DNA of 60,887 nt, counting the filler. It is 3 parts of 3 records of this genome, joined end to end, with 100 filler letters (N's around TTAATTAATTAA, not from the genome) between each part and the next. Parts side by side here need not be neighbours in the genome. Positions count along the whole stretch, not along the records: positions 1 to 31,747 come from SRR20825019_457; 2 more parts are not named here. The stretch is one strand, 5' to 3'. A program made the position numbers and the translations under genes. Below the pieces are notes generated by a model. It made no database searches. It was not told where the DNA came from and was given only the letters and a program-made list of their open reading frames with translations. Of the stretch, positions 24 through 53,182 are shown piece after piece (the first letter of the stretch is position 1; the number at the start of each line of letters is the position of its first letter).

Positions 24-136
24 TCCCGCGTACGGTATGGGCAGACATCCGCGCCGGGCACGGGGCACTTGGCTGTGTTATTGGCGTCATATAGATATTT
101 GGGTTAGCAAGTCAATATGAGCGTGAACTGAAAGCC

Positions 137-1699
137 ATGGCTGAGCGAGACAAGGCCGAGGCGCTTGAGCGCGAAATGCGCGAGCGTGAGTTGCAGCGAG
201 AGAGACGCGCCAGTGAAAGGCGAGCCGCAAGGCTGTCTGTGGCTCAGAGGTCACCGAAAAGATCCATCAGAGAGAGCTTGCTGTCGACGGAGGAGCTGTC
301 TGACGGATGGACCAGCAACCCTACATTCATTGAGCAGCGAGCTGCCAGCCTGTTTGAGTCGAGACGATCATCTAGCGCCAGTCAGCGTGCCCGCTTGTCC
401 GGTCCCAGCGAAGATGTGGAAATGGGAGAGTTCAAACGGAGCCCACAGTCGAGGTTGTCATCGGTTGAGGGGAGCCCCCATTCTGTACGCAAGTCCCCTG
501 AGCCCTCTCCTGTAGCCCGCGCCGGCAGTAGTAGCCCATCTCGTGGCGCAAACGACAGTGCTCCCTCGGTGCAAACTACTATTGTGGTGAAGAATAAGAC
601 GGAATTCCTGAAGTGGTGCCCAAGTCCTTGGGTTGTGCTCTCCATGATATGTGTGTTTATGTGGCTTCTGTGTGGTACAGTTGCATATACACTGCTAAAC
701 CAGTGGCGTTGGGATCAGGGCTTTTACTATGCATGCCAAGCCGGTCTTTCCGTAGGTTTTGGGGCCCTTGCAGAGACCAACAAGTGGAGCATGCTCTATT
801 CAATCTTCCACGTGCTCATTGGTGCGTCCATCGTAGCGGCAGCCCTCGCTTTGTTCGTCGAATTGATGCTTGAGAAGAATGTTAAGTACTTCGACGAGGA
901 GAAGCACTTGGCGAAGATGAGCATGGCTGCAGTCGATAAGGATGGGGACAACCTCTTTGATATTGACGAACTGAAGGCTTTTTACGGAGCTCTGAAGGGC
1001 CACCGCCGTCTCTCTTCAGAGAAAGTGGAGAAAATATTCAAGAAGGCAGACCAGGACAATAGCGGCAAGATTACTTTGGATGAGTTCCATGCGCTCCTAA
1101 ACTCCCACAAGTCTTGTGCACGAAAGGTGTTCGATTTGTACGCAAACAACGCCACGCGCATCAACACCATCATTATCTTCGTTACCTGGCTGACGATAGG
1201 GACATGCTATGGGGTGTTCTGGGAGAAGTGGGACGTTATCAAGTCAATGTACTTCGCGGTGGCTGCTCTCTCCACTGGTGGACTCGTGGCGCCTTCTACG
1301 GACCAATTTTCAATGATCATGGTCGGAACATATGTCATTACAGGAGTGCCCATCTTCGGTATGACCTTGGGTCAGATTGCAGGTGTCATCGTGGACAAAT
1401 ATGCCGCCAGCAAGGCCACGGCTCTGGTGGAGGAGGATGTAACTGAAGCCGAATTCGAGTTTGCCGCGGAGCTTGGAGCCGACGATGGCGATATTGATTG
1501 GCCCGAGTTCCTCCAGATGGAGATATTGAGGCTCGGCTTAACGGACAGGGACATGCTCCAGCGCATCAAGGCAAAGTTTGATAGACTGGATCTGAATAAG
1601 GACGGGAAGTTTTCTAGGATGGAAATGTTGAAGGCTCTTGGCAAGACCAAGTCGTCAGGCATCGATGAGCTCCACAGTCAGGTTACCAGTGGATTCTAA
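137..1699 (+). CDS. Two-pore-domain (4TM/2P, TPK/K2P-like) potassium channel with EF-hands
   Basis: Uninterrupted 520-aa ORF with four hydrophobic segments. Pore loops FYYACQAGLSVGFG and YFAVAALSTGGL. EF-hand loops DKDGDNLFDIDE, DQDNSGKITLDE, DDGDIDWPE and DLNKDGKFSRME. Confidence 0.85.
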   Translation: MAERDKAEALEREMRERELQRERRASERRAARLSVAQRSPKRSIRESLLSTEELSDGWTSNPTFIEQRAASLFESRRSSSASQRARLSGPSEDVEMGEFKRSPQSRLSSVEGSPHSVRKSPEPSPVARAGSSSPSRGANDSAPSVQTTIVVKNKTEFLKWCPSPWVVLSMICVFMWLLCGTVAYTLLNQWRWDQGFYYACQAGLSVGFGALAETNKWSMLYSIFHVLIGASIVAAALALFVELMLEKNVKYFDEEKHLAKMSMAAVDKDGDNLFDIDELKAFYGALKGHRRLSSEKVEKIFKKADQDNSGKITLDEFHALLNSHKSCARKVFDLYANNATRINTIIIFVTWLTIGTCYGVFWEKWDVIKSMYFAVAALSTGGLVAPSTDQFSMIMVGTYVITGVPIFGMTLGQIAGVIVDKYAASKATALVEEDVTEAEFEFAAELGADDGDIDWPEFLQMEILRLGLTDRDMLQRIKAKFDRLDLNKDGKFSRMEMLKALGKTKSSGIDELHSQVTSGF

Positions 1700-14500: not shown

Positions 14501-16192
14501 AACTCATTCTTGGATTCGTTCAACTGTTCCTTGAGCAACTCCACGTCCCGGTCCTTGTATCTTCCGGCAAGCCTTTCTTCGGAAAGAGCCCTGACCTTGC
14601 CATTGAGCTCAGCAATCTGCACAATTCCCATCAGCGCCTCCCCAGTCCGCCCAGTACGGAATCCTACATTGCACCGCGAGTCTTCGAGCTGCTTGTTCAG
14701 GAGGCCGATCTCCGTGTCCTTCTCAGAGATCTTGGTTTTAGCTGCCTCATATTCCATCTTCACAGAATTGAGCTCGCTATCTCTCTCTCTGATGGTAGTG
14801 GCCCACTTGTTCTTTTCCTCTTCCGCAAGTTTGTGCAGCTCCACAAATTGTTTTTCAACCTGGCGATCGTTAGACCTTGACTCGCTGCACAAGGAACTCA
14901 TAGCTACCTCTGCCAATTGGTTTGTCGAGTGAGCCTCCAGCGCTTCAAACTGTGCCTGCTCTACAAGGATTAAGTTGTCTCTCTCATGAACATCCTGTTG
15001 GAGACTAGAAATCCGTTCCTCCAGCTCATTTCGGGTTTTCTCAAACCATGCCCTCTGCGTGTCAAGCTTGGCCTGCAACGCGCATTCGACTAAGAAATCT
15101 TTGTATCACAACTACCTCCTCGGAACACACCTTGTCAGCATCGAGCTCAACAAACTTGGATCGGATCTCTGATTCGATGTTTTCCCAGCGCCCGTCCTTT
15201 TCCTTGAGCTTGCCCTCCTTAGAATCAATCTCCCTCTTCAGCTGCTCCCGCTCGCCATTGAATATCTCTCGGTCAGCTGCGCGATTCTACAGAGCAAACA
15301 TCAATATCACGCTGGGGTCCCAAATATAAGCCTCAACACCTGTTCCAGCTCCAATATCTTCGCCTTGAGCGACTTTTCGGTGGACGTCCATGAGTCCCGC
15401 TGGCTTTCAAACATGCGGTGCCTTGAATCGAGCTCATCCCGCACAGCATCAAGCTTATTCTGATACTGGAGGACCTTTTCCCTTTCAATTTGCAATGCCA
15501 TATTGCTCTGCCGAAGCTCCGCCTCCATGCGTCGGGCAATCGCCTCATCGCTAGACAGAAAATGAATATAATCGCAAAAATCGTTGAAGATTTCTTACCC
15601 TTCCTTCTCCAAACTGCGCGCATCTGCCATGCGAGTCACCTCCTGTCGAAGCTGGTTCACGCCTTCCTTCTCAGAGAGAAGAGCGCTTTGAATAATACTC
15701 GACCCCGCCTCACCCAGCGGCTCCACAATGGGAGGGCGCACAGAGCTGTCTTCCTTCCCATACTGCTGGGACAGAGAGAGCCCGCGCGGGGGCGAGTTAG
15801 CCGCTACTGACGCCGAGAGTAATGGCGTTGTCTTGAACGTAGGGTGCTGCATGCGTGGATAGGTTAGTACGCGCCCCCCTCAGTGTGAGAGCCGACGCAC
15901 CGACGATGACTCCACTCCGGATCTCGATAGGTCAGAGAGGAACGCGCCCGGGCTGGGGAGAGTTATTGCCGGCCTGGCGCCTGTGTGGTGCGAAGGGTCC
16001 ACCACATCGCCGGTTTGCTTGAGTGGCGTAGTTGGTTGCATCCCTCGCACCTCCTCAAGAGTCTTCATATAAGCGGCCGACTCGATGGTCTTTCGCCTAG
16101 TGTTGGGCGACGATGGATCTAACGAGTGGCTGTGTTAGTCTGCGTTAGCAGAAGGGCCAAATAGTGTTCTCACCGGCACCTTCCGAGTTCAT
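11576..16192 (-). CDS. Long multi-exon coiled-coil protein, function unknown
   Basis: A chain of E/K/Q/R-rich minus-strand ORFs; the junctions checked are joined by GT-AG introns with CTAAC/CTGAC-type branch points. ATG at 16192 follows TATAA at 16246-16242. The stop at 11576 assumes a final 47-nt intron; without it the stop is 11545. Confidence 0.72.
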
Positions 16193-17348
16193 TTCCCACC
16201 ATTTGCACGAAGCCTTGAAAGCATCTGTCAAGGGGGCTTCCTTATACAGTGTGTGCACAGCTTATGAGTTCCTGGTGTTTGTTGCATTGCGGAGAAGGAA
16301 TATCCACCCATCAGTAATGAGACTGTGCAGGGTCCGGCGGCCGGGCGCTCCGAGGAGCGGCCGCGTAGCTCCGCGATTGCCATGGAATGCCGGCGGCCCA
16401 ATCGATTGACGACGGTGCCATGGAGCAGCCGTGTGGTCCGGCAGTGGCCAGCGCCACTGGCAGGCGGGCAGCCAGTGAGCGAATGACACGCTCGGCTCAC
16501 TTCGCGCCTGGGCCGGGCGCCGGCCGGGCGGCCCGGCAGGCCGTCCGGTCCGCCGCGCATAGCTGTGTGCCCGGCCCCGCTCCAGTGCCGGCGGCACCGT
16601 GCAGCGCAGGCCGACAGTCAGGGGCCCGGCGCGCGGCGGCTCCGCTCCCGGCGTCCGGCCGGGCCGGCCCCGGCCGCGGAAACTCAAACTTTTTGACATC
16701 CCGCGAAAACTCAACAGCAAGTTTCGAGGACTATCACATCCCCAGTCGAGGAGAGGCCACATGCTTTTTGGTGGAACTTTCTCACGGCCCGGTCGTCGTC
16801 CCCGGCCCGGCCAGCGGCCGGGCCTGACGGCTCACCCCGCGCCCGCCGCCCGGGCCGGGCGGGCCGGGCCTGATTCCGGGGCCGGTCGGCGGACCTAGGG
16901 CGTCCGGCGACGGGGCGTGGCGCGGACTCACGTCCGCGGGCGGCCGGGGCCGGCGTGCCTCCGAGCGTCAGTGGGTCCCGCCGTGACGCAGGCGGTCGTG
17001 GGGCGGCGGTTCAGGGCCCGGCCCGGCCGGCAAGATCTGAATCACGAGGGCCGGTCCGGTCCGACTGGCCCGGCCCCCCCAGCCGGCTGAGGTGCCTGGG
17101 GGGAGGACGAGAAGAGTGACGCTCATCAGGCTGATGAGAACCAAGACTGGGACCGGCAGCGCGTGCGGACCCGAGCGCGGTGTAGGCATGGTGCCAATCG
17201 GCATCGCGGCTTTGAGTGGTAGCGAGGGCACCCTGTAGGCCGGGGGCGAGAATAGCCAACTCCAGCGAGCCGCGGTTGTCCCATCGACGCCCGTACTCAC
17301 TCTGGATATATGGGCGTTTAATTTGTAAACGATGACGGTGCTGTCGCT
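16193..17348. promoter_or_regulatory. Divergent promoter spacer (coiled-coil gene / CysRS-like gene)
   Basis: Very GC-rich GGCC/CCGG arms around an AT-richer core. TATA-like boxes at 16242-16246 (minus) and 17307-17311 (plus). Confidence 0.65.
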
Positions 17349-19784
17349 ATGAACATGGATGACGTTGACCTTGTGCTAGAGCAAGTGAAGGCCGAACCCT
17401 CGGAGGATCTGCCCTCTAGCGTCACGGACACCCCGGCGCTCCGCGTGGGGCCCAGTCTCGATTTCTCAGCCGCACAAGAGCTGCCTCCGCTTAAGGTTTA
17501 CAACTCTCTTACGGGGAAAAAGGTATGTTTGGGCGTGTCATGAATGCCTCGGCCTGCCTCTGACTGTGCGGCCGCCCGCCAGATGGAGTTCAAGAGCTCA
17601 GCCCCAAACCGTGTCTCCTGGTACTGCTGCGGGCCCACCGCTCTTAACACTCTTAGCATAGATCAGGCGAGGTACGCGGTACAGCGCACTAGTGCATCTG
17701 CATGTGATCCTGATTCGAGCTCTAGGACGTTCCAGGTGTTTGATTCGATTCGCTGTATTTTAGAGACAACCTTTAGACTAGACTTGTTTTTCGTGATGAA
17801 TATCACAGACGTAGACGACGAGATCGCTAGCACCGCCGCGAAGATTCACCAGGACGAAATTGAGTTTGCAAGGGGAGTGGAGGAACTCCTCTCAGCACAG
17901 TTTAAGCGGCTGTGCATTCAGCCACCCCATGTTATGACTCGCGTCTCTGAGTTTATCCCGGAGATTATAATGTTCTGCGAGAGACTGATCGAGAACTCGG
18001 TGGCATATGTTGTGAACGGGAGGGATGTGTATTTCGATACAAAAGCTTTTGCTGAGAAAGGATACAAACTAGGGAAGCTTCATGACGATGGGCGGCCCAC
18101 AAGCTCGCCTCCATCACCTGGGGCCGAGTGGCGCGGCGGGAAACGCTCTCCGGCGGACTTCTTGCTGTGGCGAACCTGCATCAACCCACAGAAAGAGCGC
18201 TGTTGGGACTCGCCTTGGGGCAATGGCCGCCCGGCGTGGAACGTGCAGTGCAGTACCATGGCTGCCCAACTTCTCGGGAAGAACCTGGACCTCCACAGTG
18301 GCGGATGCAATCTGCGGTCGCCCCATCATGAGAACTCTATGGCGCAGTGCGAGGCGTTCTTCGAGCAGGAGCAGGTATGGGCATCGCCCGGTTGATTCGG
18401 GCAAGGACTGATATGAACTATAGTGGGGGACAAATTATCTTCATGTTGGAAAGACCTCCATTGCACCGGACTTCAGGCTTGATCTTGAGGGTGTTCTGAA
18501 TAACTACGGCTGTAGGGTCTTCCGCATTTTTGTGCTTTCGCATCCATATGGCAATGATGTGGTCCTCGACGAGAACCAGCTGATCATGGCCAAAGAAACA
18601 GACAAGAGCTTCTGCCACTTCTTTGAAAAGTCGCATGCTCGCATTCGCAGCGCTGGGAAGCAAGCTGCGCAGAAACATAGGTTAGATGCAAGGCTTGGGG
18701 GTCGGGGTTGTATGATGACGTCAAGTGCATTTAGGTGGTCACAACAAGACAAGGACATATATGCCAGTGTGTTGCGGGCACGAGGAGCAATCGAGCGATT
18801 TTTGAGGTGCGTTTGCTAGGAAGAATTGCTGAGTAATAGGCTGACATATCGCATGGTTGTAGAGACAACTTTGACACTCCCAACGTGCTCATGCAGCTCT
18901 CGTTTATCGCCAAGTCAGTCCACGTGTACATGCTCGACAAGAAGAATCAACCAAAGGTGGATGGAAGTGCGCCGATGCTCACACAAATCCTCTTCTTACC
19001 CATCTGCAGGTACATCTGTTGGAGCTCATCCGAAACTATATCCATTTTACTCTCACCGGATTGGGATTGCATTACCAAAAGGCACAGGATACCTGTTCTT
19101 GCAGTACGTGGGAGGGTATGTGGTCCTGCCGGGTTTTATTGATGCTCGGCTTTGTTGCAGCTGAGATTGAGAAGGGCAAGGCAACCCTTGAAGAGAAAGG
19201 AAAACAGAAATCCAAACAGAAAGCAGCGGAAAAAGCGGCAGTGGAACACAAGAAGTTTTCGGACAAGAAGCAGGTGAAAACATTTTGGTGCTGCAAACCG
19301 AAGAGAGAATTGATGTGTATCGATGCAGAATTTTGTGGATGAGATTACCAAGGTGCACATGCCGAGGAAGTACAATCCTGTCAGGGTCTTGGTCAAGTTT
19401 AGGGAGAGGGTTCGGCAGGCGGCCCTTGCTGGTGAGTGTGGCAGCTAGCATGGCTCAACATGATGGCAGGGGCTCAATTGAGGTTCAGATAATACGGATA
19501 GTGAGCTTAAGAAAGAAATTCTGGGTATGTGTGACAAGGTAACGGAAACCTGCATTGCGGAGTTGGGTGTTGCCATTGAAGATAAAGAAAAGAAGTCGAC
19601 TTGGAGACAGGTTTGTGTGGGACACGGTGAATCCGATCATGTGCTGAACGAAATACAATAGGTGAGGGATATTCCTCCCGAGGTGATGCACAGTTTGTAT
19701 GTAGGTCTCCAAGAGAGCAAGAATCTGGCCGACCAGGAGAAGAAACGGGGCGGACAAGACGAAAAGAAGCGAGAGAGTAAATGA
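17349..19784 (+). CDS. Cysteinyl-tRNA synthetase paralogue with degenerate catalytic motifs (about 10 introns)
   Basis: Colinear with eukaryotic CysRS: LKVYNSLT, WYCCGPT, MNITDVDD, TRVSEFIPEII, VYFDT, KRSPADFLLW, SPWGNGRP, PHHEN, DNFDT, ELGVAIED. The HIGH and KMSKS motifs are absent. Confidence 0.85.
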
Positions 19785-19841
19785 TTGCCAGTGATGTGGC
19801 GTTTCCGCTAAGTCTTAGACAATGATTTGTTGTGACGAAAT

Positions 19842-22800
19842 TTAATCATCATCATCCTCAAACTCGTCAGCTTCATAGGATTCATCGCTTCCTTCGGGTT
19901 CGGAAGGGCTGTCCCCCTCGTCAAGTGGGATCTGGTCCTCCTTGACCAAGCGGTACCACTCCAAGAAGTCATCGAGGTCTACGGATCGGCCGCTTAACAG
20001 GCTGCTGCGGTCATATCCCTCCACACCGAGGTCAACAACAAGACTCTTCAGTTGCACGACACTAATAGTTCTGCTCATGTTCTTGTCATATTTTGCAAAT
20101 GCTTGCTTGACAGCAATCTCCTCATCCCGAGAAAATCCCCCAGACTTTGGAACTTGGTCCTTATCATGATTGAATGCGTTCACATACCAAAGCAAAAAAT
20201 CATTCAGCATGACGATGCCGCCCGACGACTCAAGCGCCGAAAAGTCATGGTGGTCCATCCTCAAGTCTTGAACCAGAGTCGAAAGGTCAGAGGAAGGGAT
20301 GCTCCTCGATCTATCACGGTCATAAAATGCAAATGCCCGCTTCGCCTTTAACTCCACATCTTTAGGAAGCGGTTCTGATAAGGGAGGTGCTTTGGGCAGG
20401 GTGTTGATACTCCCTAGTAGTGACAGCTCCGCCTGTTTGCTGACAGCCTCCTTAACGGAGCCATCGGCCACACCCTCGTACCAGGCCAAAAAATCATCCA
20501 GTTCAACAACACCATCAGCCCGAATAAGGTCCGAAGTCGAGAACTCCTCGCATCCCAAATCACCAACAAGATCCGGCAAATGCTTCACATCGATGGCTCT
20601 TGAGCGCTCGATGTCGTAGCGGGCGAAAGCTCTCTTGGCATTGAGTTCCTCCTGGTGACCGAACTTGGTTGGGGGCTTCATCTTTAACTGGGCCATGTTA
20701 CCGAGCATGGTGTTAGCTGCAGTCACCATCGCAACCTTCTCTGCCGTTCCATCCAAAACACGCCGGTACCACGCCAAAAACTCATCAAGGTTCACCACAT
20801 CAGCGGAACGCAGGGCCATTGTGTCAAAGTCCTTCGAGACGTCTAGTTCTTGCAAGACAGCATCTAGATCCTGCGTGGGGATTGTCCTGCTGCGCTCACG
20901 GTCGTATTTCGCAAATGCTCGTTTGGCCTTCAGCTCCCTTTGCCTCGCCTCATCAAGGTTTGAGTTTCGGTTCGCCTGGACAGGGGCTCCTTGATCTGCC
21001 TTCAAACTCTGAGGAATTTGCCCCATCATCACGTCGGCGGCCGCCGTCATTGCGGGTGGCGGCTCTTGTGTCACCTTAGGTGCCTCTTTCACCTTCAAGG
21101 TATCAGGTATTCTGTTCAGCAGCACCTCCGCGGCAATCTCTGCCGGTGTTTGCTTTTGCTTCCTCATGAGGGCGCCGTACCACTCCAAGAAGTCCTGGTA
21201 TTCGACATACGCCCCAACGTGAAGATCCCTTGCGTCATCTTCACTGAGTCCGAGGTCACCCAGAAGATTCGCAAAGTGCACGATGCTCACCTGGCGGTTT
21301 CGCTCGACATCATAAGACGAAAACGCGCGCTTGGCCCGCTGTTCTTGCTCTAGGCTCAGTCCTGGTATTCTTGGAGTCTCCGGGCGCAGAGACCTGGCTG
21401 GTTCAGCCGCATCGCTTCCACCACCTCCCCTCGTTGTTTCCGGAGCATCATTAGGCCCGCGAATTCTCTCCACATCGTTGGGTGAGCCTGATGATCCCAA
21501 TGGCGTCGCCAATCCCTTCGACACACTGCGAAGCGAACTCAAATCGACCTCATCGAGTATCTTGGAATTTCTCCGGCTGTAGTTGATGCCTTCGCTCTTC
21601 ATCGCCTCGAGGATGTGAGGTTTCTCATCCAAGTTTGAGGCAGTTTCGTCATCCGACAGGTCTAGTTTGATGTCCTCTTGCTTGATATTCTTCAGGACTT
21701 CGACTGCTCCGTGCACGTCAACATTGGATACTGAGCGGTAGAAATCAGACAAGATGCGCTGTCGCTTGAATTTGTCAGCAGAGGATAACGAGGAGAAAAT
21801 ATCTTTCCCGGCCTTGTACACCTCCTTCCTCATCTGTGTTCTGACCATGTCCGAGTTGCTGCGCAGAGCCTTCTTCCTCTTGTGACGCTCCGCTCTGATC
21901 TCCTCCATTCGCGCTTCCATCTCCTCTTGAACTCTTTTCCGCTCAGCAGCGCGCTGCTCGTTCAACTTACGCCGGGTGTTCCACATATCACTGATCCACC
22001 CGTCGCGTCTCTCATCAGGGCGGTACGATACAATGTTCCCGCTGAAGTGTTGGCTACTGGCTTCTTCCAGCCTATCCCTAGAGTTGAGACTGCATTAGTG
22101 ATTTGGCCAAGACCGTTTGAACATGACCTACTTATAGGTGTACAATGGTTGTACTCTCTCAATCAGCTGCTGCTTCATCTTGGGATGTTGCCTCTTCCTG
22201 TTGATACGAATGAACTTCCAGTGGGGATGCTCATTCTGGGTTTCGCCAGTCCTGAGATTCATGTACTCCTTCTGACCAGAAAATGGATCTACTTGCGGAA
22301 TCTTATCGAAGGCAAAGTTAGCGTCATCAATCATATTTTCGTTCGCGCAAAGCATCATACCCAGTCATCTTTGAGAGGTTTCTTGAGCAAATATCGCGTC
22401 ATATTCTCGTTCCACATCTTGTAACTTCCCTCGATACGTTTTTTCTCCGCCATAATCTCAGTGTCAATACGCTCCGCCTGCTTAATGAGAAAATAGGAGT
22501 TGATGAACTTGCTCTCCTCCTGCTTGAAATCTTCACGGAAAGAGTCCATCGCGTTCTGCCACCGTAGCCTGTCCATCCGTGTGGCTTGGATGCGCTATAG
22601 CAACTAGTCAGGATTTTTCATATTTTCTCGCGACAAATAAAAAGTCTTACCGCCATCATGGAAGAAAAGAACTTCTTTTTCTTAGACATTAGATTTCTCA
22701 TCGCGCGTTGAATCATAATGATCGCGTCACGTATCTTCTTGGTATATTGTTTAGCTTTGTACATCCGCCACGTCTTTTGTATATCCACCGCAGCCTCGAA

Positions 22801-24573
22801 CTGGGCGCGCTTTCTTTCCGTCAACAAAATCTCAAGTGGATTATCCCTCATTTTCTTCAAAATCTTCATATACTCTACTTGCGCATCTTCTGACTTCTCC
22901 TTGTTTTGGGCCACCGTCATGAGATCCTCAAAAAACACACGGTTGTTGTGCTCCGCGTACAACTTGGCCGACCTGTACATTCTGATTCGGAATCTCAACC
23001 AATCCTTGACCTTCTGCTCCAGGGTTCTTCTCTTGACAGCCTCGACGATAAGCTTGTGGAATCCGGCCCTGTTGAAGTAGTTTCGCCACGTTCGTTGAAT
23101 GATACTCGCGCATGTATTCCGGAACCTTTCGTACGCCAACGCTTTGTCGCGTTCCGCCCTCTCCTTCCTCTTGATCTCAAGAAACCGCCGGATGTGTTTT
23201 CTGAACTCTGCGAACTTTCGCTCCTGAACCCGCCTCATCAGTTCCCCAACCTTCATTTCGTGAAACCTTTTCTGGATCTTTCTTTCCTCTAGCGCCTCCC
23301 ATAGCCGTTTCCGAGCCTGGCGGGCCCGCACAATCGCCTGGATTTTCTTGGTTGACTCAATCACCTTCTCAGTGACTTCCACAAAGGTTGTTTTCAGCCT
23401 GGCTCTTGTCTCCGTGTGATGCTTCCCATCTAGCTCCCCCCCAAAATATTCTTCCCTGTCAATTATCGCCTGCATTCCACCTGTCACCGCAGCGCCGGTC
23501 TGGAGCACCTCCTGCTCCTTCTTCGCCACAACCGCGCTCTCCGAGGCTTTTTTGGGCTTCTTCCTCGTATTGACAAACGCATCGGCCGTCGGCGGCCGGC
23601 CCCTTTCAGCCGGTGCCCCCGCCATGTACTGAACCTTCTTGAGAAACTCAGGATCCTCCAATTCCTTCAGAACGCGCTGGAATTCCGCCGCGGCGTCCAT
23701 GAGCTGCTTGGTCAAGACCTGCACAGGCTTGTTCATCGTCTCCACTTTTCCCTTGGTGCCCTCCAGCTGCGCCATAGCCTTCTGACGCATAGACGCCAGC
23801 TGATTCTTCCACGTGTCTGCATCGAGACCTTTCCCGAGCATTTGCTTAACATCGGTCAAAGGCCCCGCCGACTTGTGCGGAGACATCCTGACCAGCCCAG
23901 GGGCAACACTTTGTGAAAGATGAAGGGTATTCATCCTCTTTTCCTCCTCGATTTCATTTAAAGCAAGAACATCGTCGGCAAACTGCACCGCGCCTAGATC
24001 AGCAATCGCATCAAGGTTGGACCTCTTCAACTGCTTCAAGAGCTCGACCTCCCGTCCACAGCGCCACTCCTCGCGGAACTTGCACTCCAGTAACAGCTGG
24101 CCTAGTGTTCTGCTATCTACCACCTCGGACCCGCTCTTTACATCCTGCAATAGACGGAAGTCATGCGCACGACCAAGCGAGCACCGCATCAGCTCGTCAA
24201 AGCTCGCCTTAACCTGCATCTTCTTCTGGTACTTGGGAATCACGGTATTAGCCATGTTATCGTCGCCCCAGCCTTCCATCCCCACGCCCACGCGACTCGC
24301 GGGCCACTGTTCTTTCTGTGCCCCTTTGTTGTTAGGAGTGGCAGTTGGTGGATTGGGCGCGTACATCACACGTTCCCCGACCTTAACCGGGGCATGCTTC
24401 TCTGTAGCATTCACTAACTTGCTGTGTCTGCTTAACCCAGCGCTCCGGACCCTCTTTTGGCCCTTAACGCGGCCGATGCGGTGTGCGGCCCCCTGATAGA
24501 AAAACAACATTTCCTCCCCCTTGCCGTCAGCTCGCGTCCCGCCTGGCCGGCGGGGCGGCTTTGAGGCACTCAT
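19842..24573 (-). CDS. Large protein with IQ motifs, a WW domain and five EF-hand-like repeats, 3 introns
   Basis: ORFs 22618-24630, 22355-22576, 22128-22358 and 19842-21986 join in frame via GT-AG introns. IQ motifs IQAIVRARQAR, IQRTWRNY, IQKTWRMY and IQRAMRNL. Spliced WW-like PLKDDWIPQVDPFSGQKEYMNLRTGETQNEHP. An alternative ATG lies at 24630. Confidence 0.8.
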
Positions 24574-25811
24574 CCCTGTTGTTGTCGGCCACGATACAAT
24601 GAAATAGTGTGCAGGGCCTTGCCGATACATATGCCAAGGGGTTGTTGTATGAAGTGTGGAAGGGAGAGTCCCGTCAAGAGCCGCGGGAAGAGTCGGGCCG
24701 GTTCAATCAGCCAAAGGCATGCCGGGTGAGCCCTGGCCACGCCCCTCGATGGGCCAGCCGGCCTGGCTCCCTACCTGCCCAGTGCCCGCTGATCACGGCA
24801 GGCCTCGTCTGGGCGAGGCCCCCTAGCTACAGAAGAGAATGTGGCGAGGCCATGGGGTGCGCCCCATAATAACGGCTTGAGGAGGATGGAGAATGAACTA
24901 GCACGTTAACCGGCCGGCAAACCTCCCGGCTCATCAGATGGGCCCGGCTGCCGGCACAGAGTCTCACTGGGGACACGGCTCCGGACAGTGATGGAGTCGC
25001 GAGCCGTTTCAAATGTGTTTTTCCTGAAGAGCATTGGTAATTAGAGGGTGGCCTCAATCCATCGCGAAACAATCGACGTCACACTGTTGTTCGCGCGTGA
25101 GCCGTTGACCGGCACACGGTTTTCCGGCAGTCCAAGTCTCGGCCGTGCTCGTGGCGGCATCCGGCGATTGAGCGCCGCCCGGCCGCCCGGTTCAGTGCCC
25201 GGTTCGGGCCGTGGCGTGCGCAGTCCGGCGAGAGTACTCGTATGCGACCGGCGGAGCCGGCTACCGGGAGGCCCGTCGTCCGTCGTCCGGCGCCCCCCCG
25301 GACAGGGCCTGAGGCCGCCGCCCCCCGGGGCGCGGAGCCGGGGGCCATGGCCCCCCCGGCCCGGCCGGGCCGGCCTGGCTTTAGTCAGTGTGACTTCCCG
25401 CGATGGTGCCCGGCCACGCACGGATTGGCCACGGAGCGCCACGGCCTGGGCTTCATGGCCGGCGAGCCGGAGCGGTTCCCCAGCTTTGGAGCAACACTGA
25501 CAGGCCGCCGACGGCAGTGCTGAGCGACAGTGACGCCGTAGTGTGCCACCATCCCCAACAGTGGAGGGTTACTGAGCCTCCAGTCGTCCGGGGTTCAATG
25601 AGGGATCAGTCGTGGGTCCGACTAGACCCGCAGTGATAGAGTTTACCCCTTAGTTGGGAGAGAGAGGCCGACTGCCATAGGGTGGCACCAATCTTGCGGA
25701 AGAACACGGCTGCGCTGCGCCTCCTCTAGGTGGCTGGACTCAGTAGAGTCTCTTATAAGTCGGAGCGGCGAAGTTCTAGTCAATTTCACGGGGTGAACGC
25801 GCGTTCTTGAA
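24574..25811. promoter_or_regulatory. Divergent promoter spacer (IQ/EF gene / ERCC6L)
   Basis: GC-rich island with 11 CAGTG/CACTG sites between 24780 and 25635, and TATAA at 25754. Confidence 0.65.
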
Positions 25812-28800
25812 ATGGCCGACGATACCCCAGCAAAGATTAGGGGTGCCTCTGATGGATGGCGCAAGAAGTCTAGTGCGCCTTCCAAGAGCCGATATGCATT
25901 CAAGCCGAATGTGGCTGTCCGTGAGAAGATTAACGAGAGTGACCTTCTACAAGGGCTGGACAGTTTTCTCATGACGGTAAAGAAGACTCATCAGGAGGTG
26001 TGTGATATGGTGGATTCCTTTGAGAAGGAGAACCACAACCCGGATACAATGGAGTCCCCCGTTCCCAAAGTGGCTGAATCTCGGGATGAGACATTGTCCC
26101 CGGCGAGCGGTATGGACAAGAATGACACCTCCGGACCACCGAAGGAGAGCGGGGAGGAGGAGCAGGGCATGACCAAGGAGGACAAGAAAAGGTTTAATCG
26201 GTACGTCCGCAACGCCAAGGAGTGCGAAGAGGCCGGCGATGTTGAGTCCGCCATCGCACTGTATGAGCAGGCGGCGGCCATCACGGATCCGGGAGGCAAG
26301 ATTGCCAAAAAGATATCGAAACTCCAGTCCAAGGGCAGGCCGAATGCCCTTGCTGAACTCGGCGGGGTGGAGTCCGTGGGTGGTTTGTGTGTTTCGTCCG
26401 AGCAACTGGAAAGCCCTGATGTCCATGGTGTCAGGAGACACGTGTCAACAGGCGAATACTTCTTCGACGGCTCGTTTGCGCTCCCCGCGGCGGTTTATGA
26501 AAAGCTTTATGGGTACCAGAGAGATGGCGTCCGGTGGCTCTATGACCTCCGTGGTAAGATTAGTGGTGGTGCCGGTGGGATACTGGGTGACGACATGGGC
26601 CTGGGCAAGACCATCCAGTGCGCCGCATTCTTGGCAGGGCTGTTCCACTCCAGATTGGTATCCAAGGTTCTTCTGGTTCTCCCGGTCTCTTTGGTCCATC
26701 ACTGGGCGGACACGCTTGGACAGTGGTGCGAGGGCGTTAAGGTCAAGATGTACTACGGCTCCTCAGTGGCAGATAGGGACCGGGCACTCAAGTCTATTGA
26801 CAAGAAGGGTGGGATATGCATAACCACCTATGGCATGGTCAACACCTCCGCGGACCGTCTGTCCTCAGTGAAGGGCCATTGGGACTATATCATCCTAGAC
26901 GAAGGGCACAAGATCAAGAACCTGAAGATCCAGTTGAACCAGCAGTTGAGCTCCATCTCCTGTGATTACCGTGTCATGCTCACGGGGACGCCAGTCCAGA
27001 ACAATCTCCTTGAAATGTGGGCACTGTTCGACTGGGCCTGCCAGAGCAGGTACCATTATTCCTTGTTGTGAAAGTATGCATCCTTACTCGTTTCTTGCAG
27101 GTTGCTCGGATCTGTACAAGACTTCCGCGACACGTTCAACACCCCAATAGTCCGTTCGAACGAGAAGGTTGCCACCTCATACGAGAAGAGACTAGGTGCG
27201 AAGAAAGCAGAGCTTTTGCGAAGGACGATAGCTCCCCACTTTCTGCGCCGGGAAAAGTCTACCACGTTCAAATCGAAGCCTTCATCTGAGGCATCTGAAA
27301 GCAGCGCAATCTCTTCAATTGTCACCCCTTCTGAAGCCGTGTCTGTGCCACAGAGCTCACTTCCGCGCAAGATAGATCTGATCGTGTGGTTGAGGTTGAG
27401 CAATGAGCAGCGTGCGATGTATGAATCATTCCTCAAGTCAGACCGGGTTCAGGTCGTGCTCAACCAGAGCAAGTCTCCCCTCGCTGCAATCACGGTCCTC
27501 AAGAAAGTATGCGACCACCCCCTTCTACTTCAAACGACCGGGGTCATTGCCCGCGAGCTGGAGGAAGAGGGTGTTCTTCCTTCATTTGAGAATGACGATG
27601 TATCTACCTCTACTGACGATCCCTCCTCCGAGGACTGCTTCGCTTCCAACCTTGCATCGACACCCATGGATCAGGTCATTGACGTGTCAAGCAAACTTGC
27701 ATTCGCTGTGATGCTGTTGGATGAATTGAAGCGGCAGGGCGACGCTGTGCTTGTTTTCAGCCAGTCCAAACGCATGTTGGATATTCTCTCCAAGGTGTTA
27801 TCTGCAAGGGACGTGAATCATTTACGAATGGACGGAACGGTGAAGTCATCTGACCGCCAGGAATCTGTGCGGCGCTTCAACTCGGATGAGAATCTGTTCT
27901 GCTTCCTCCTCACCACTCAAGTTGGCGGCCTGGGTCTGACCCTTACACGTGCCAATAGGGTGGTGATTTTAGACCCGGCATGGAACCCGTCGGTGGACAA
28001 CCAAGCTGTGGACCGCGCATATCGGATTGGCCAGAAGCGCGATGTCATTGTGTATCGTCTGATGACTTGCAGCACGGTGGAAGAGAAGATATACCAGCGA
28101 CAAGTGTTCAAGGGAGGACTGGTTCGGGCGAGCATGGACGAGACCACTCAGTATAGGTATTTCAGCAAATCTGACATGCAAGACCTGTTTACACTTGTCA
28201 ACCCGGACGCATCGGAAACACAACAGACCCTCTCGGACCTTCACGGGCGCGGATCGTATCATCCCGACGTAGACGATCATCTGAGCCGCTTGGAGAGCCA
28301 TCCCGCGGTATTTGGTCTCTCTAGTCACGATCGCCTATTTTCTATCGAAGGCGAGATCGAAGAGGTCGATGAAGAGAGCAAGGTTCGTATAGAGATGATG
28401 ACCCCCAGGGCCACTCCCGCACGCGGGAGCAAGGCAGGGGGCATGGAGCCGAGCCAGGATACCAGCATGATGGAACCGAGCCAGGATACCAGCATGATCG
28501 AGGGGCCTGACTTTGGCCATGGAGCTGATGAGGAGAATACGGATGGCCAAATGGAGGAGGATACGGATAACCAAATGGAGGAGAATACGGATGGCCAAAT
28601 GGATGAATCAGGTATTCAGCCCCCAACTTTTCTGGACTTTGGAGGCACCGATGGCCATGACTGCGGTGCTTCTCAGGATTCTAGTGATAATTTCTATTCA
28701 TTGGAGGGAGATGAACTGTCGGCCGAGCCGTCCCAAAAGTCATGTGGCTCCAGTGAAAACTCTGATCAGAGGCAAGACCCCCCCGCTCAAGGAGGAGATG

Positions 28801-29605
28801 GTGCCGTGGCGGATGACATGCAGACGGCATTGGGATCGCCATCATCAACGCGCAGCGCGGACTTGCACACCGCAGATGGATCAGAATCTGATCAGGGCGG
28901 AGAATTCGTCGAGTCTAAAAAGATGACAGAAAACGAAGGTTTTTACGGCAACGAGAACATCCCCGCGGATTCCGCCGACGAGGACGAGTTCCTTTCGGCG
29001 CATGGCTCCTCTGTAGCCGCTCTTTCCCCAAGGCCGGACCTTACATCCGCCGATGTGTTGTCTCCTACGCCTCTTGGTTCTGAGGAGGGCGAAGAGCCCT
29101 GGACGGATTGCGGGATGTCTGTAGACCGATCATCAAGTGTGGACAAGGACGATGGAGTCGACAGGAGTGTTTCTGAGTGCAATGACAATGTTGCCGAGCC
29201 AGAGCCAGAGATAGACACCGGATTTAATGACGTAGGTTGATCTTCTCCATGGGTATCCCCGTCCTCATTGTATCACAGGGTTGCCCCAGAAGCGTGTGCG
29301 AGGAGCATGCCCAGGGCGCTGAGCCGTTCAGGCCTGACCTTTGCCGGTGCTTCTTGGAAGAAGACGACATGGAGCACTACTTCAGCCTCCTCGACATGGC
29401 CAGGTATGGGTTGAATTTGTTCGCACAGCTGGCCTCAAGGGCGTGCACTGACACTGGTTGCGAATAATTCAGTTCATTCGAGGAGCTGGGGGATCTAGAC
29501 GCGGCGCTTGAATCCTGCGCAGATGCCTTGGACATTTGCAGCGATGATCCCAAGCTCCATGAGCGCACGATGCACCTCTATAAGCTTGTTAGTGGCACGG
29601 GATAG
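25812..29605 (+). CDS. ERCC6L: SNF2-family DNA translocase ERCC6L/PICH-like, 3 introns
   Basis: Helicase motifs GILGDDMGLGKT, ILDEGHKIKN, LTGTPVQNNL, FLLTTQVGGLGLTLT and DPAWNPSVDNQAVDRAYRIGQ. TPR-like segments occur at both termini (FNRYVRNAKECEEAGDVESAIALYEQA; YFSLLDMASSFEELGDLDAALESCADAL), as in PICH. Confidence 0.88.
28443..28601 (+). repeat. In-frame coding tandem repeats in the acidic tail of ERCC6L (27-bp x2 and 24-bp x3)
   Basis: MEPSQDTSM occurs twice, followed by EENTDGQM/EEDTDNQM/EENTDGQM, with near-identical DNA units. Confidence 0.9.
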
Positions 29606-33651: not shown

Positions 33652-36600
33652 CTACCAGGGGGGACTAGTAAGTGCGGCGGTAATATCATCACCAAATTCA
33701 TCGTCCATCGAAAAGGAGGAGATATCATCATTCCTTTCGTCAAAGTCGTGGCCTTCTGAGGTGGGAGACAGTTGTGGTGAGCTAGTAGTAGCGGGGTTGG
33801 GGTCGACTCTCGTTCCTGGTACATCCTCCCCCTCCTCATCGGTGTAGCTATCCTCGTCAGACCACGTCGCCATCCACTTCCTAAATGCTCTCTGAATGGT
33901 AGTAGCGCACCGTCTCTGTAGGTCTAGGTTAGAGGCACTTAGCATGTTAAGCACCTCTAGGTATCGCCTCTCGGCATCCACTATGGTGGCCTTGAGACGC
34001 TTTGAAGAAGTGGCTACAGAGTACACTGGGGAGGAGGGGGATGATGGTGTTGCGTTGGGCTGTTCTTGATTGTGATTGTGGTTCTCTGGTGACTCGTCGT
34101 CGACATCATCTTCCTGTTCCATATGCCGCATCTCGTCCGATACGAATGTATTAACCAACGACATGAAGGGGTCCTCCGGTGCCTTAGCGGTACTATCCTT
34201 GATCGACCTAGGGGTGGTGATGACGGTAAGATCCCGTAGCTGGGCCGGGGAGCGCAGGAATATGTTGGGGGTTAGTTGGTGGGCATAGGACCTGATGAGG
34301 GCGTAGTCTTGCCTGTCGTTGAAGGTAGGGGATAGCAGAGGAGAGCAGGCAGTGTCTCCCTTTGGGGTGGGTTGTGCCCTCATCGTACCCTCCACCTTGG
34401 GAGGGGCCGATGCTGCTGATGGTGTCGACTTCACAGTAGTATCTTCATTGGCCGTTGTCTTGATATCGACGATGGTATTGGTGGGAGTTGATAGCATACG
34501 TGAGGCAGCGGGAATACGACCTGTGCGAATCACCAACGCACTCGCTCGTAGGAACTCGGACCTTGCTTGGGCCTCCTCCTTTAGGGCGTCCATAGATGGT
34601 GATAATGTTGATGAACTGCGGGCCTCATCGAACCGTAAAAGTTTCAGCTCCACGCCCATCTTTATGGCATCGATGCCTAGTGACAATGCACGGGCCTGGA
34701 GGGTACTTTGATATGTACGAGGGACGACTCCTCCCTCGGAGTCAAATACATGGGTTGGGCGGTAGCTGTCGTACACAGCATCCCTATCACGTTTTACCCC
34801 CTGTAGGAGCTGGTCATAGAAGGCTTTCCTACCCGCCTCAGCATGTAGCAATACGGCAAGGTCCTCACCACCACCACCACCACACCCCTGACCTGACAGC
34901 AATACATTAGTGGCAGCGGAGCTAATATTGGGGTTATTGGACACCCTCTCTCGGGCCCGGAAGAGGTCTAGGGGCATTCCCTCCAACTCATCCAGCTTCC
35001 TTCTACACACAGCATTTAGATGTGCGGCTGCAGAGGAGGGACGAGCCTGGGGGGTTGCTGGTGTTGCTGATGTTGTAATCCGTACCGGGGTAGAAGTAGT
35101 GGATGTGGGGAACCCATGGGATGTCTTGGGGGGCTGATGTTGTTGGGGGGACGTTGAAGTAGTGCCTATTGCACGATTAGCTGGGGCAGATGACACTCGA
35201 GACGGGAGCCTCTTTTGTAACACAAACCGGGACTGTGGTGGTGGTACAACATTTGTGGTGTTAGTGGATGCCTTACTACTACCATGTGGAGCAGTACGTG
35301 GGGGTGAGAGAGGGGAGGCATCGTGCGCCGAGAGGGGTCCTCCTCGTCCTGGAAGTTGTTGTTCCGAAGACGAGTTAATGTCGACGGAGCCGATAGACAG
35401 GTCACCCACCTTCCTATCACTTCCACCACCATCACTATCATCTACTAACGCCAATACCTCTAGAGCACTCCCTCTCATAAACCCACTCATATCGTTCCCA
35501 TCGGTATGTTGGAATTGTAATGAGGAGGTAGAGTTCATAGCAGGAGCAGTAGCAGCATCAATGGTGGTGGTGGTATCGATGGGGCTGCGTCCCATTAACT
35601 GTGGCACAGATCGATAAGTTGGGGCGGCGTTGTTACCGGAGCTACTGGTAGGGCGGCCCTTGTTGGTAGGAGGAGGAGGGGAGTAGTCATCTGTGGCGAA
35701 TCGAACATTCTTTTGCGTGCCAGTGGATTGTGGACGTGGTGGTAGACCACTACTATGAGGCTTCACAGTGGTGTTTGAGATTGCGTATTCCTCTTCATCC
35801 ATGCCGTCCAATCGAATCGAGTTCACCACCGCCCCACTAACACCACTCATAGCAGTTCCGCGTGATGGGTGTGCAGAAACACGTGCAGAGGAGGTGGCTG
35901 GTCGTGGGGGCTTTTGTGCGGAGGAAGAGCTCCCTAGACGCCCACTGGACTTCGGGCGACCTGAAGAGGTATTCGGGGTAGGCGGTAATGAAGTGGTAGT
36001 AGTGGTGGTGGTGTCGTCAGTATTGTGCCAGTAGCCCCTAGAATTGGGGCGGGTAGCGGCCTCTCGAGACTTCTCCAAATCCTCTAGTTTCTTCATTGCA
36101 CTCCAGTTTCGCCAATATGTCGATGTAACCCGGCCATCGGCACTCCACGGCCGTGTTATTTTCTTCGGAGCCTTGTTCACGCGCATCGAACGGGTGTTGT
36201 CTGTTCCACCAGCAGTAGCTGTAGTGTGAGTTGGGGAAGGTGGTACAACAACCCTTGCTGCACTGCTTTGGGGGCGGTGTCGAGAGCTGACAGGCATGGG
36301 TGGTGGCGGTGCATGGTGATGTGAGGTTAAAGAGGGGGATAGTCTTCCTCCCTCAGCCCCCAGCGCACTTCGCATGGGAGGTAGCCTGCCACGCTCCTGT
36401 AGGCGGGCTTGCTTTGGCGTTGGTGTTTTGATAGAGGAGGATGGGGGACGTATGTGGGAGAGGTCAGAGGCGGACAGATGCTGGGGGATGAGGATGCTAC
36501 TCCTATATTCTACCGTAGGAGAAGCAACAATACCCACCACACCACCACCATCGTTGCAATCACTGCTAAAGACATCACGACGGGTCATCATTGTACCCCT

Positions 36601-39153: not shown

Positions 39154-39509
39154 AATAAATATATGGAAGGTATTTTGGTGGTGTGGGTGAGCGTAATGGA
39201 GTAGTACAAAGTGAAAAAGTTGTATGCTGTTGTTGTGAAGTAAAGTATTTTCGGAGTGAACCTTAAAAGTGAGAGGTGAATTTCTTTCAACTATACTTCT
39301 TTTAAAATTGAAAAAGGTGGATAACATTGGAAAAGATACATGAAAAATGCAACAGACTTTAAAATGCATCAGACAGCGATATTAAAATAAAATAGGTTCG
39401 TTACATTGAATGTTGGATGATATTTGATGATTTGTACACTGTTGTTTGTGGTGATAGGCATATACTGGCGTATATGTAGAGTAGATAGATAAGACTACTA
39501 CTTACTTAC

Positions 39510-52673: not shown

Positions 52674-53182
52674 ACAAAGAATAGAGGGAAGAGAGTAGTG
52701 GGTTGTTGATTACTAGAGGTGTGTGTTTGTGTATTGTGTGTTATCCTTCACGTTTCTCAAAATGTGAGAGAGTGTGTTTCTTCGATATTTTGATGATGAG
52801 AGTGAGGGATAGGAAATTTTAAATGACCATCAAACACTATATTTCAAACAACAATTCAATCAGCCAACACTGCAGTAACACCCCACAGGTCACACACACA
52901 TAAATAGAGTGATGATCGAGTAGTGAAACAGAATGTTGAAAGACTGAAGTAATTAAAAAGGAAAGGGGGAAGTGGTATCAATTTTGGTGGAGGAAAGGGG
53001 GAAGACTGTAGTGATAGACTTTAATACGATATGCTCAACGAGAGAACGACGATGATGACATGTGTGTGTCATGTGTGTGTCTGTTTGTTAAACGGAGGGG
53101 TATTGATCGCCCTCTAGTGTAGTGTTGTCGTCGTCATCTTTTCTGTCAAAGGTGCTGGTGTTGGAGTATTGTCGTATATCGA

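Follow-up and report, generated by a model that had tools for sequence, protein, structure and literature searches.

Results

A transcribed and spliced CysRS-like gene

The window, by which we mean the whole 60.9-kb stretch of DNA analyzed here, is eukaryotic nuclear DNA of about 52% GC, and its source organism is a marine single-celled eukaryote. On its plus strand, between 17349 and 19784, lies a gene related to cysteinyl-tRNA synthetase (CysRS), with an ATG at 17349, a stop codon at 19782-19784 and 11 exons. The coding sequence (CDS) of 1890 nucleotides (nt) comprises 629 codons plus the stop and contains no internal stop codon; the 10 introns, of 49-60 nt each, are all of the GT..AG type. 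A stop-to-stop reading of 17200-19900 yields a chain of plus-strand frames, the longest of which (17544-18395) matches Pfam family PF01406, and tblastn with four CysRS proteins revealed colinear homology from 17490 to 19607. The exon model was built from this tblastn homology and the GT-AG boundaries, and was then checked against assembled contigs of four public runs, here X1 to X4.

These contigs demonstrate that the gene is expressed and correctly spliced. One 1897-nt contig of X1 spans 17340-19761 with all ten introns removed; an 899-nt contig of X2 has the last seven junctions spliced and extends to 19801; and the removal of intron 3 is also seen in a 151-nt contig of X3, a marine metatranscriptome that belongs to a different study. 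X4, a marine metagenome, contributed an unspliced piece beginning within intron 10. The model derived from sequence only was right at nine of the ten junctions, and the RNA shifted the intron 7 donor from 19116 to 19104 (intron 19104-19160), giving an exon 7/8 junction at 19103/19161 that is present in both X1 and X2. The first-pass annotation of this DNA had proposed about ten GT-AG introns and a frame that is open after splicing, and both points are borne out by the contigs (ten junctions in X1, seven in X2, intron 3 in X3; 629 open codons). Transcripts and genome differ at only three positions, of which 17399 and 18920 are synonymous and 19750 changes Gly619 to Asp (G619D) in the C-terminal tail. 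The 5' end of the X1 contig, at 17340, carries a 21-nt tail absent from the window, which we take to be the end of a template-switching oligo; read in this way, it places the 5' end of the cDNA at about 17340, nine bases before the ATG. The features of the gene, with amino acid (aa) positions of the encoded protein, are as follows.

17340-17348, plus strand: 5' untranslated region, from the start of the X1 contig
17349-17522, plus strand: exon 1, aa 1-58; acidic N-terminal extension, then conserved LKVYNSLTG; no Pfam match in the exon
17583-17671, plus strand: exon 2, aa 59-88; WYCCGPT, in which C74 is the first zinc cysteine; HIGH degenerate
17655-17666, plus strand: HIGH position, reading SIDQ, aa 83-86; from the alignment with 201 canonical CysRS
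17726-18374, plus strand: exon 3, aa 88-304; Rossmann-fold body and connective-polypeptide insertion, PF01406
17820-17831, plus strand: KIIK position, reading EIAS, aa 120-123; from HMMER against the PDB and the 201-sequence alignment
18234-18251, plus strand: GWHIEC, reading AWNVQC, aa 258-263; Trp and second zinc cysteine kept
18324-18338, plus strand: HHxNE, reading HHENS, aa 288-292; His equivalent to H234 kept, Glu equivalent to E238 replaced by Ser
18424-18680, plus strand: exon 4, aa 305-390; stem-contact region, KMSKS loop degenerate and shortened
18442-18486, plus strand: position at which the KMSKS loop is lost, aa 311-325; exon-internal, away from any splice junction, RNA contigs continuous
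18735-18806, plus strand: exon 5, aa 390-414; from spliced contigs
18863-18956, plus strand: exon 6, aa 414-445; beginning of the helical anticodon-binding domain, DNFDTP motif kept
19010-19103, plus strand: exon 7, aa 446-477; donor site set by the RNA
19161-19273, plus strand: exon 8, aa 477-514; Lys/Glu-rich stretch, opposite gaps in all 11 aligned CysRS-family sequences
19329-19431, plus strand: exon 9, aa 515-549; conserved FRxxVR helix kept
19489-19610, plus strand: exon 10, aa 549-589; C-terminal anticodon-domain motif, D..RD reading DKVTE at 19533-19547
19662-19784, plus strand: exon 11, aa 590-629 and stop; short Lys-rich tail, without the C-terminal extension of the aligned full-length canonical sequences

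The encoded protein has a calculated pI of 8.0. Introns 2 (17672-17725) and 4 (18681-18734) are each 54 nt long, in frame and stop-free, and the retention of either would add 18 residues without truncation; six of the ten introns have a length divisible by three.

Homology to CysRS and predicted fold

Exons 2 and 3 match PF01406 (tRNA-synt_1e) with E = 1.2e-55 and 189.5 bits, against a cut-off of 27. For more specific comparisons we assembled a reference set of 201 database CysRS of 430-900 aa in which all four signatures are present, and aligned it with the spliced protein using MAFFT. With a profile of these canonical sequences, residues 44-618 align in one stretch at 434.8 bits. The C-terminal half (residues 305-629) on its own scores 109.1 bits, and the best shuffled copy reaches 8.6 bits (200 copies searched, 198 reported); the colinearity thus extends through the anticodon domain beyond chance, as the first-pass annotation had maintained in describing the product as colinear with eukaryotic CysRS over this length. 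It is only with such a CysRS-specific profile that the homology of exon 4 is detectable: alone, this exon matches no Pfam family and no PDB entry, and when read through into exon 5 it finds no PDB match, even at E values up to 10.

An AlphaFold2 model, for which the query was the contiguous exon 2 + intron 2 + exon 3 reading and not the spliced full-length protein, has a mean predicted local distance difference test (pLDDT) score of 85.5 and a predicted template modeling score (pTM) of 0.86 with 44 homologs, and its best PDB matches are the CysRS structures of Plasmodium falciparum (TM score 0.83). Since the model was built with an alignment of homologs, a good fold is expected and does not discriminate between an active and an inactive enzyme. 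The low-confidence stretch, query residues 24-43, takes in the region of the degenerate HIGH motif and the majority of the residues encoded by the intron.

Loss of the catalytic signatures

Of the alignment columns, 107 show at least 90% conservation among the 201 canonical sequences. In the window protein 68 of them are kept, while canonical members keep 81 at the minimum (5th percentile 97, median 106, maximum 107), and its 39 changed columns cluster in and around HIGH, KIIK, LWK, GWHIEC, GGxDLxF, HHxNE and the KMSKS loop. The motif CGPTVYDxxHxGHAR reads CGPTALNTLSIDQAR; within it VYD..HxGH has become ALN..SxDQ, the H, G and H of HIGH, which are 99-100% conserved in the reference set, being replaced by S, D and Q. 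DDKII reads DDEIA, with EIAS at the KIIK position, LWK reads LWR, GGxDLxF reads GGxNLxS, GWHIECS reads AWNVQCS and HHxNE reads HHENS. The GHLxIxGxKMSKSLKNF loop is degenerate: six conserved columns are gapped, and the columns for K, M, S, K, S, L, K, N and F (94-100% conserved) are all changed or gapped. None of the four lysines of KIIK and KMSK is left. By comparison, the WHIEC-type motif is kept in all 120 listed matches of the largest database search described below.

Other parts of the family signature persist, namely CGPT, TDxDD, RVxE, VYFD, DFxLW, WxSPWGxGRPxW, CSxM, DxHxGG, PHHxN and AQxEA. In Escherichia coli numbering, taken from the alignment to 1LI5 (HMMER against the PDB), the equivalents of W205, C209, H234 and H235 are kept; changed are those of H206 (to Asn), E208 (to Gln), D229 (to Asn), E238 (to Ser), K73 (to Glu) and K76 (to Ser). 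The equivalents of G29, T68 and W205, which we take to line the cysteine pocket of the E. coli enzyme, are likewise retained. H234 and E238 are presumably zinc ligands of E. coli CysRS; C28 and C209 have been described as such (PMC5660078). In the 201-sequence alignment C74 occupies the C28 position, and three of the four zinc-site positions (C28, C209 and H234) are therefore preserved, the fourth (E238) being Ser. Beyond the KMSKS loop, 59 columns reach a conservation of 60% or more; the window protein keeps 33 of them, and its changes there are in many cases conservative. The anticodon-binding half still has FRxxVR and LGxxxED, and D..RD has become DKVTE: D564 is kept, R567 (87% conserved) is Thr and D568 is Glu.

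Most of these changes had already been listed in the first-pass annotation, and they hold under alignment. The HIGH motif, which it counted among the lost signatures, reads SIDQ at columns 99-100% conserved in the 201 sequences; the KMSKS loop that it called missing is degenerate, with six gapped columns, inside exon 4; AWNVQCS, HHENS and DDEIA were all reproduced by tblastn, MAFFT and HMMER against the PDB, and DKVTE in the alignment. The two cysteines and the histidine that it considered to remain of the zinc site correspond to the kept equivalents of C28, C209 and H234. A splice pattern restoring HIGH or KMSKS was looked for in the contigs, and the transcripts encode the same degenerate motifs. 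The HIGH site lies inside exon 2, the KMSKS site inside exon 4, and the contigs run through both; splicing thus gives no rescue, and in the transcript contigs seen neither alternative splicing nor editing restores the two motifs.

Accelerated evolution with an intact frame

The window protein forms the longest terminal branch in the tree, both under LG+C20 (2.77 versus a median of 0.92) and under LG+G4 (1.77 versus 0.53), that is, about three times the median in each case. Its 629 codons and 20 splice sites are intact despite this long branch. When the CDS was randomly substituted to 20, 36 or 60% amino-acid divergence, none of 300 runs was stop-free at any level. Identity to the canonical consensus climbs with column conservation, from 18% in the most variable class to 36%, 56% and finally 64%, leaving 36% of the most conserved columns at variance with the consensus. 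GC content by codon position is 0.55/0.38/0.62, similar to that of the neighboring genes. From the intact frame, the outcome of the neutral runs, the graded identity and the codon-position GC, we argue that most of the divergence probably arose under selection for an open, foldable protein.

Search for relatives

No ortholog was found with exon 3 among 5.8 billion clustered proteins of 379-2000 aa (best identity 47%), nor among 1.84 billion representatives of all lengths (best identity 50%, over partial alignments), nor in one scan of Joint Genome Institute (JGI) metagenome contigs, which returned 20 loci at 41% identity or less. The first-pass annotation had proposed a search for orthologs sharing the motif loss; none turned up in the protein collections or the JGI contigs (best identity 50%). 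The conserved neighboring SNF2/ERCC6L-like gene likewise finds nothing above 52% in databases. The lineage thus appears to be unrepresented there, which makes the absence of orthologs uninformative.

Two unnamed CysRS-like proteins, P0194 (664 aa) and P0199 (780 aa), which lie on large ENA contigs (0.76 and 2.0 Mb), group together as a pair in the tree, at 100% support. The KMSKS loop is degenerate in both, and DDKII and GWHIEC are kept in both; P0194 retains HLGH and 98 of the 107 conserved columns, and P0199 begins after the HIGH position. In an approximately unbiased (AU) test on 27 rows under LG+G4, a clade uniting the window protein with this pair was not rejected (p = 0.498), a result that shows nothing, the clade having been named after the data were seen. 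We did not retain a kinship: identity to the pair is 31-33%, no higher than to canonical CysRS, and the motif changes differ. P0194 and P0199 may be another, independent lineage of KMSKS-less CysRS paralogs.

Neighborhood of the gene

Convergent with the CysRS-like gene is an intronless 750-aa frame with repeated EF-hand matches (19842-22094, minus strand). A distance of 57 nt separates the two stop codons and, with the CysRS-like transcript extending to 19801 or beyond, the 3' ends nearly touch. The SNF2/ERCC6L-like helicase gene lies at 25797-29240 on the plus strand, its best database relatives being 41-52% identical; a codon reassignment considered for this gene was rejected, since the in-frame stop falls in an ordinary 51-nt GT-AG intron (27050-27100). 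On the minus strand, an uninterrupted 4399-aa frame (39510-52709) shows WD40 beta-propeller matches near residues 895-1545, and directly downstream of it on the same strand is a 1909-aa frame without Pfam match (33652-39381). GC content at third codon positions is about 0.50 in these two frames versus about 0.60 in the other genes. A frame at 95-1699 (plus strand) combines an ion-channel pore domain (Ion_trans_2) with EF-hands. The 2-kb bins 16001-18000 and 24001-26000 have 61-63% GC, versus about 52% elsewhere, and the former is placed just upstream of the CysRS-like start.

Discussion

Comparison with known CysRS and CysRS-derived proteins

The closest point of comparison is the canonical short-form cytosolic CysRS, as in P. 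falciparum (PDB 9yru and 9ys2), Cryptosporidium and a euglenid. Domain order is the same, length is comparable (629 aa versus about 580-640), identity is 31-34% over some 550 residues and 43-47% in exon 3, and the predicted fold matches with the TM score given above. Both share CGPT, NITDxDD, DFxLW, WxSPWGxGRP, DxHxGG, PHH, DNFxTP, FRxxVR and LGxxxED. Unlike canonical CysRS, the window protein has lost the HIGH and KIIK motifs, the KMSKS loop, the Glu of HHxNE and part of GWHIEC. It further differs in its additional Lys-rich insert, in the absence of the C-terminal extension and in a branch that is about three times longer.

MshC, the CysRS-like cysteine ligase of mycothiol synthesis, is also a CysRS-derived paralog; it keeps the ATP motifs and is without an anticodon domain. 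The window protein is its opposite, with the motifs lost and the anticodon domain present, encoded by a eukaryotic gene with spliceosomal introns, and its PDB match to MshC is weaker than that to CysRS (E = 3.4e-28 versus 3.5e-49). MshC is an ATP-dependent ligase of actinobacteria (PMC9437257). The CysRS* of Desulfobacterales offers a second case of a duplicated CysRS with altered function; it is active, has no anticodon-binding domain and charges a SelC-like tRNA (PMC9437257). The window protein differs from it in having kept the anticodon domain and lost the catalytic motifs. With the persulfide synthase CARS it shares the family and the zinc cysteines, and it is without the KIIK and KMSK lysines needed for that activity.

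In its general character, the window protein is more reminiscent of non-catalytic synthetase paralogs, in which the fold is kept and the active site ablated: SLIMP, the inactive subunit of animal mitochondrial seryl-tRNA synthetase (SerRS), the pseudo-monomer of trypanosomatid tyrosyl-tRNA synthetase (TyrRS), HisZ and the HisRS-like domain of GCN2. The role of such paralogs shifts to binding or regulation. They come from other synthetases, most of them class II and none CysRS-derived, and their partner or ligand is known. For instance, an inactive subunit exists in animal mitochondrial SerRS (PMC10570016), and trypanosomatid TyrRS is a pseudo-dimer with a non-catalytic half (PMC9437257). The table of a 2022 review gives only CysRS* and MshC as CysRS paralogs, both active (PMC9437257), and our literature search, which included full texts, found no stand-alone, catalytically ablated CysRS paralog described in a eukaryote.

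A probable pseudo-synthetase and its possible roles

Class I synthetases bind ATP and stabilize the transition state of adenylation through HIGH and KMSKS. With both motifs gone, adenylate formation by the window protein is very unlikely. CysRS has a second activity, the pyridoxal phosphate (PLP)-dependent synthesis of cysteine persulfide; for this reaction both E. coli CARS and human CARS2 require the lysines of 73-KIIK-76 and 266-KMSK-269, mutation of each of which strongly lowered persulfide synthesis by the E. coli enzyme, and the zinc cysteines are not required (PMC5660078). All four lysines being absent here, this activity is unlikely too. Judged from the sequence, cysteinyl-adenylate formation, tRNA-Cys charging and cysteine persulfide synthesis have most likely all been lost. 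We therefore consider it likely that this transcribed and correctly spliced gene is a full-length duplicate of a cytosolic CysRS of the eukaryotic type and has turned pseudo-enzyme, a probable pseudo-synthetase. The first-pass annotation had seen in it a retained protein that probably cannot aminoacylate, and this view is upheld by the degenerate motifs of the mature transcript, the intact frame and the position of the losses, which affect ATP-handling and catalytic sites and spare structural ones. A separate working CysRS would then be expected elsewhere in the genome.

What such a protein might do can be approached from the pattern of its losses. The ATP side of the pocket appears eroded, the cysteine/zinc side largely preserved, and the tRNA-facing domains seem intact. 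These kept elements and the Lys-rich insert lead us to favor a role in binding, presumably maintained by selection, in which the preferred ligand would be tRNA, another RNA or the product Cys-tRNA and the lysine-rich insert of exon 8 may aid RNA binding. Next in order would come a role as partner subunit of the real CysRS or as a cysteine/zinc sensor. The scaffold, RNA-binding and metal- or thiol-sensing roles put forward in the first-pass annotation are hypotheses in the same sense.

Several observations weigh against this interpretation or parts of it. No ortholog turned up in the collections searched, so that the gene is so far known from one organism, and within the window there is no second CysRS-like stretch. 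In the LG+C20 tree the branching around the protein is open, with short and probably prokaryotic sequences nearby, and a warning of long-branch effects applies. X1 and X2 represent one sample, of unrecorded library type; the attribution of the tail of the X1 contig to a template-switching oligo is our reading; and one of the three genome-transcript differences, G619D, is non-synonymous. The Arg of D..RD is, as we understand it, an anticodon contact in E. coli CysRS, and its replacement by Thr would weaken a specific reading of tRNA-Cys. Any particular binding partner is a proposal on our part.

Alternative explanations

A transcribed, functionless duplicate in decay, which has so far escaped stop codons and frameshifts, would also explain why no ortholog turned up, why its terminal branch exceeds all others in the tree, why the catalytic motifs are ablated and why one in three polymorphisms is non-synonymous; a very recent release from constraint is compatible with the data. 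Against such decay stand the 629 codons and 20 splice sites, all intact, with ten of ten introns removed. None of the 300 neutral runs stayed stop-free even at 20% divergence, and the real protein is off the consensus at 36% of its most conserved columns. The losses are clustered and not uniform, with consensus identity rising from 18% in variable to 64% in the most conserved columns, and the GC pattern is still of the coding type. Decay is thus quite unlikely in our judgment. That the protein is instead a working CysRS, possibly the only one of the organism, with non-canonical residues in place of HIGH and KMSKS, would fit the largely kept cysteine/zinc pocket (C74, G75, T115, W259, C263 and H288) and the kept tRNA-facing domains. 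It is difficult to reconcile with the replacement or deletion of all HIGH and KMSKS columns that are 99-100% conserved among the 201 canonical sequences, at which no substitute His or Lys is visible. Two further positions, the E238-equivalent Glu and the Asp that is invariant in GGxDL, are changed as well, the branch is about three times the median, unlike that of a sole essential enzyme, and it is well established that transition-state stabilization by class I synthetases relies on HIGH and KMSKS. We regard this explanation as very improbable.

The third alternative accepts the loss of adenylation and proposes a new ATP-independent activity, or sensing, through the kept cysteine/zinc pocket: the protein might act on Cys-tRNA in the manner of cyclodipeptide synthases, or report cysteine or zinc to a partner as HisZ does for HisG. 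The erosion removes the ATP side of the pocket and spares its amino-acid side, and class I synthetase-like enzymes that use aminoacyl-tRNA rather than ATP do exist (PMC3105412, PMC7566563). This reading must contend with a Ser in place of the fourth zinc ligand, with changes at the equivalents of H206 and E208 beside the pocket, and with the lack of an evident partner gene adjoining, the neighbors being an EF-hand repeat protein and unrelated genes. Any ligand binding that it invokes is putative, and we hold this alternative to be unlikely. The same low odds, if not slightly lower ones, apply to a specific version of it, in which the protein would be maintained as an ATP-independent reader of cysteine status that binds zinc and cysteine, or the cysteinyl end of Cys-tRNA-Cys, through the retained half of the former active site, and either signals to a partner or uses the charged tRNA as a cysteine donor. 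A pseudo-synthetase that acts by binding remains the explanation that we prefer.

Significance

For several amino-acid specificities inactive copies of tRNA synthetases have been described, and such copies have repeatedly proved to be regulators, sensors or subunits. Pseudo-synthetases as such are therefore not new; what is probably new here is that one has arisen from CysRS, and in a eukaryote. The evidence comes from a single organism, whose lineage is absent from databases. Expression was seen in a sample of cultured or isolated cells, and the spliced transcript is also present in a marine metatranscriptome, so that the gene could be cloned and the protein assayed. If the pattern seen in the pocket is confirmed, the protein would be a natural separation-of-function variant for the non-charging roles of the CysRS scaffold; and if the reading of cysteine status were true, it would be the first eukaryotic CysRS-derived sensor or aminoacyl-tRNA-using enzyme.

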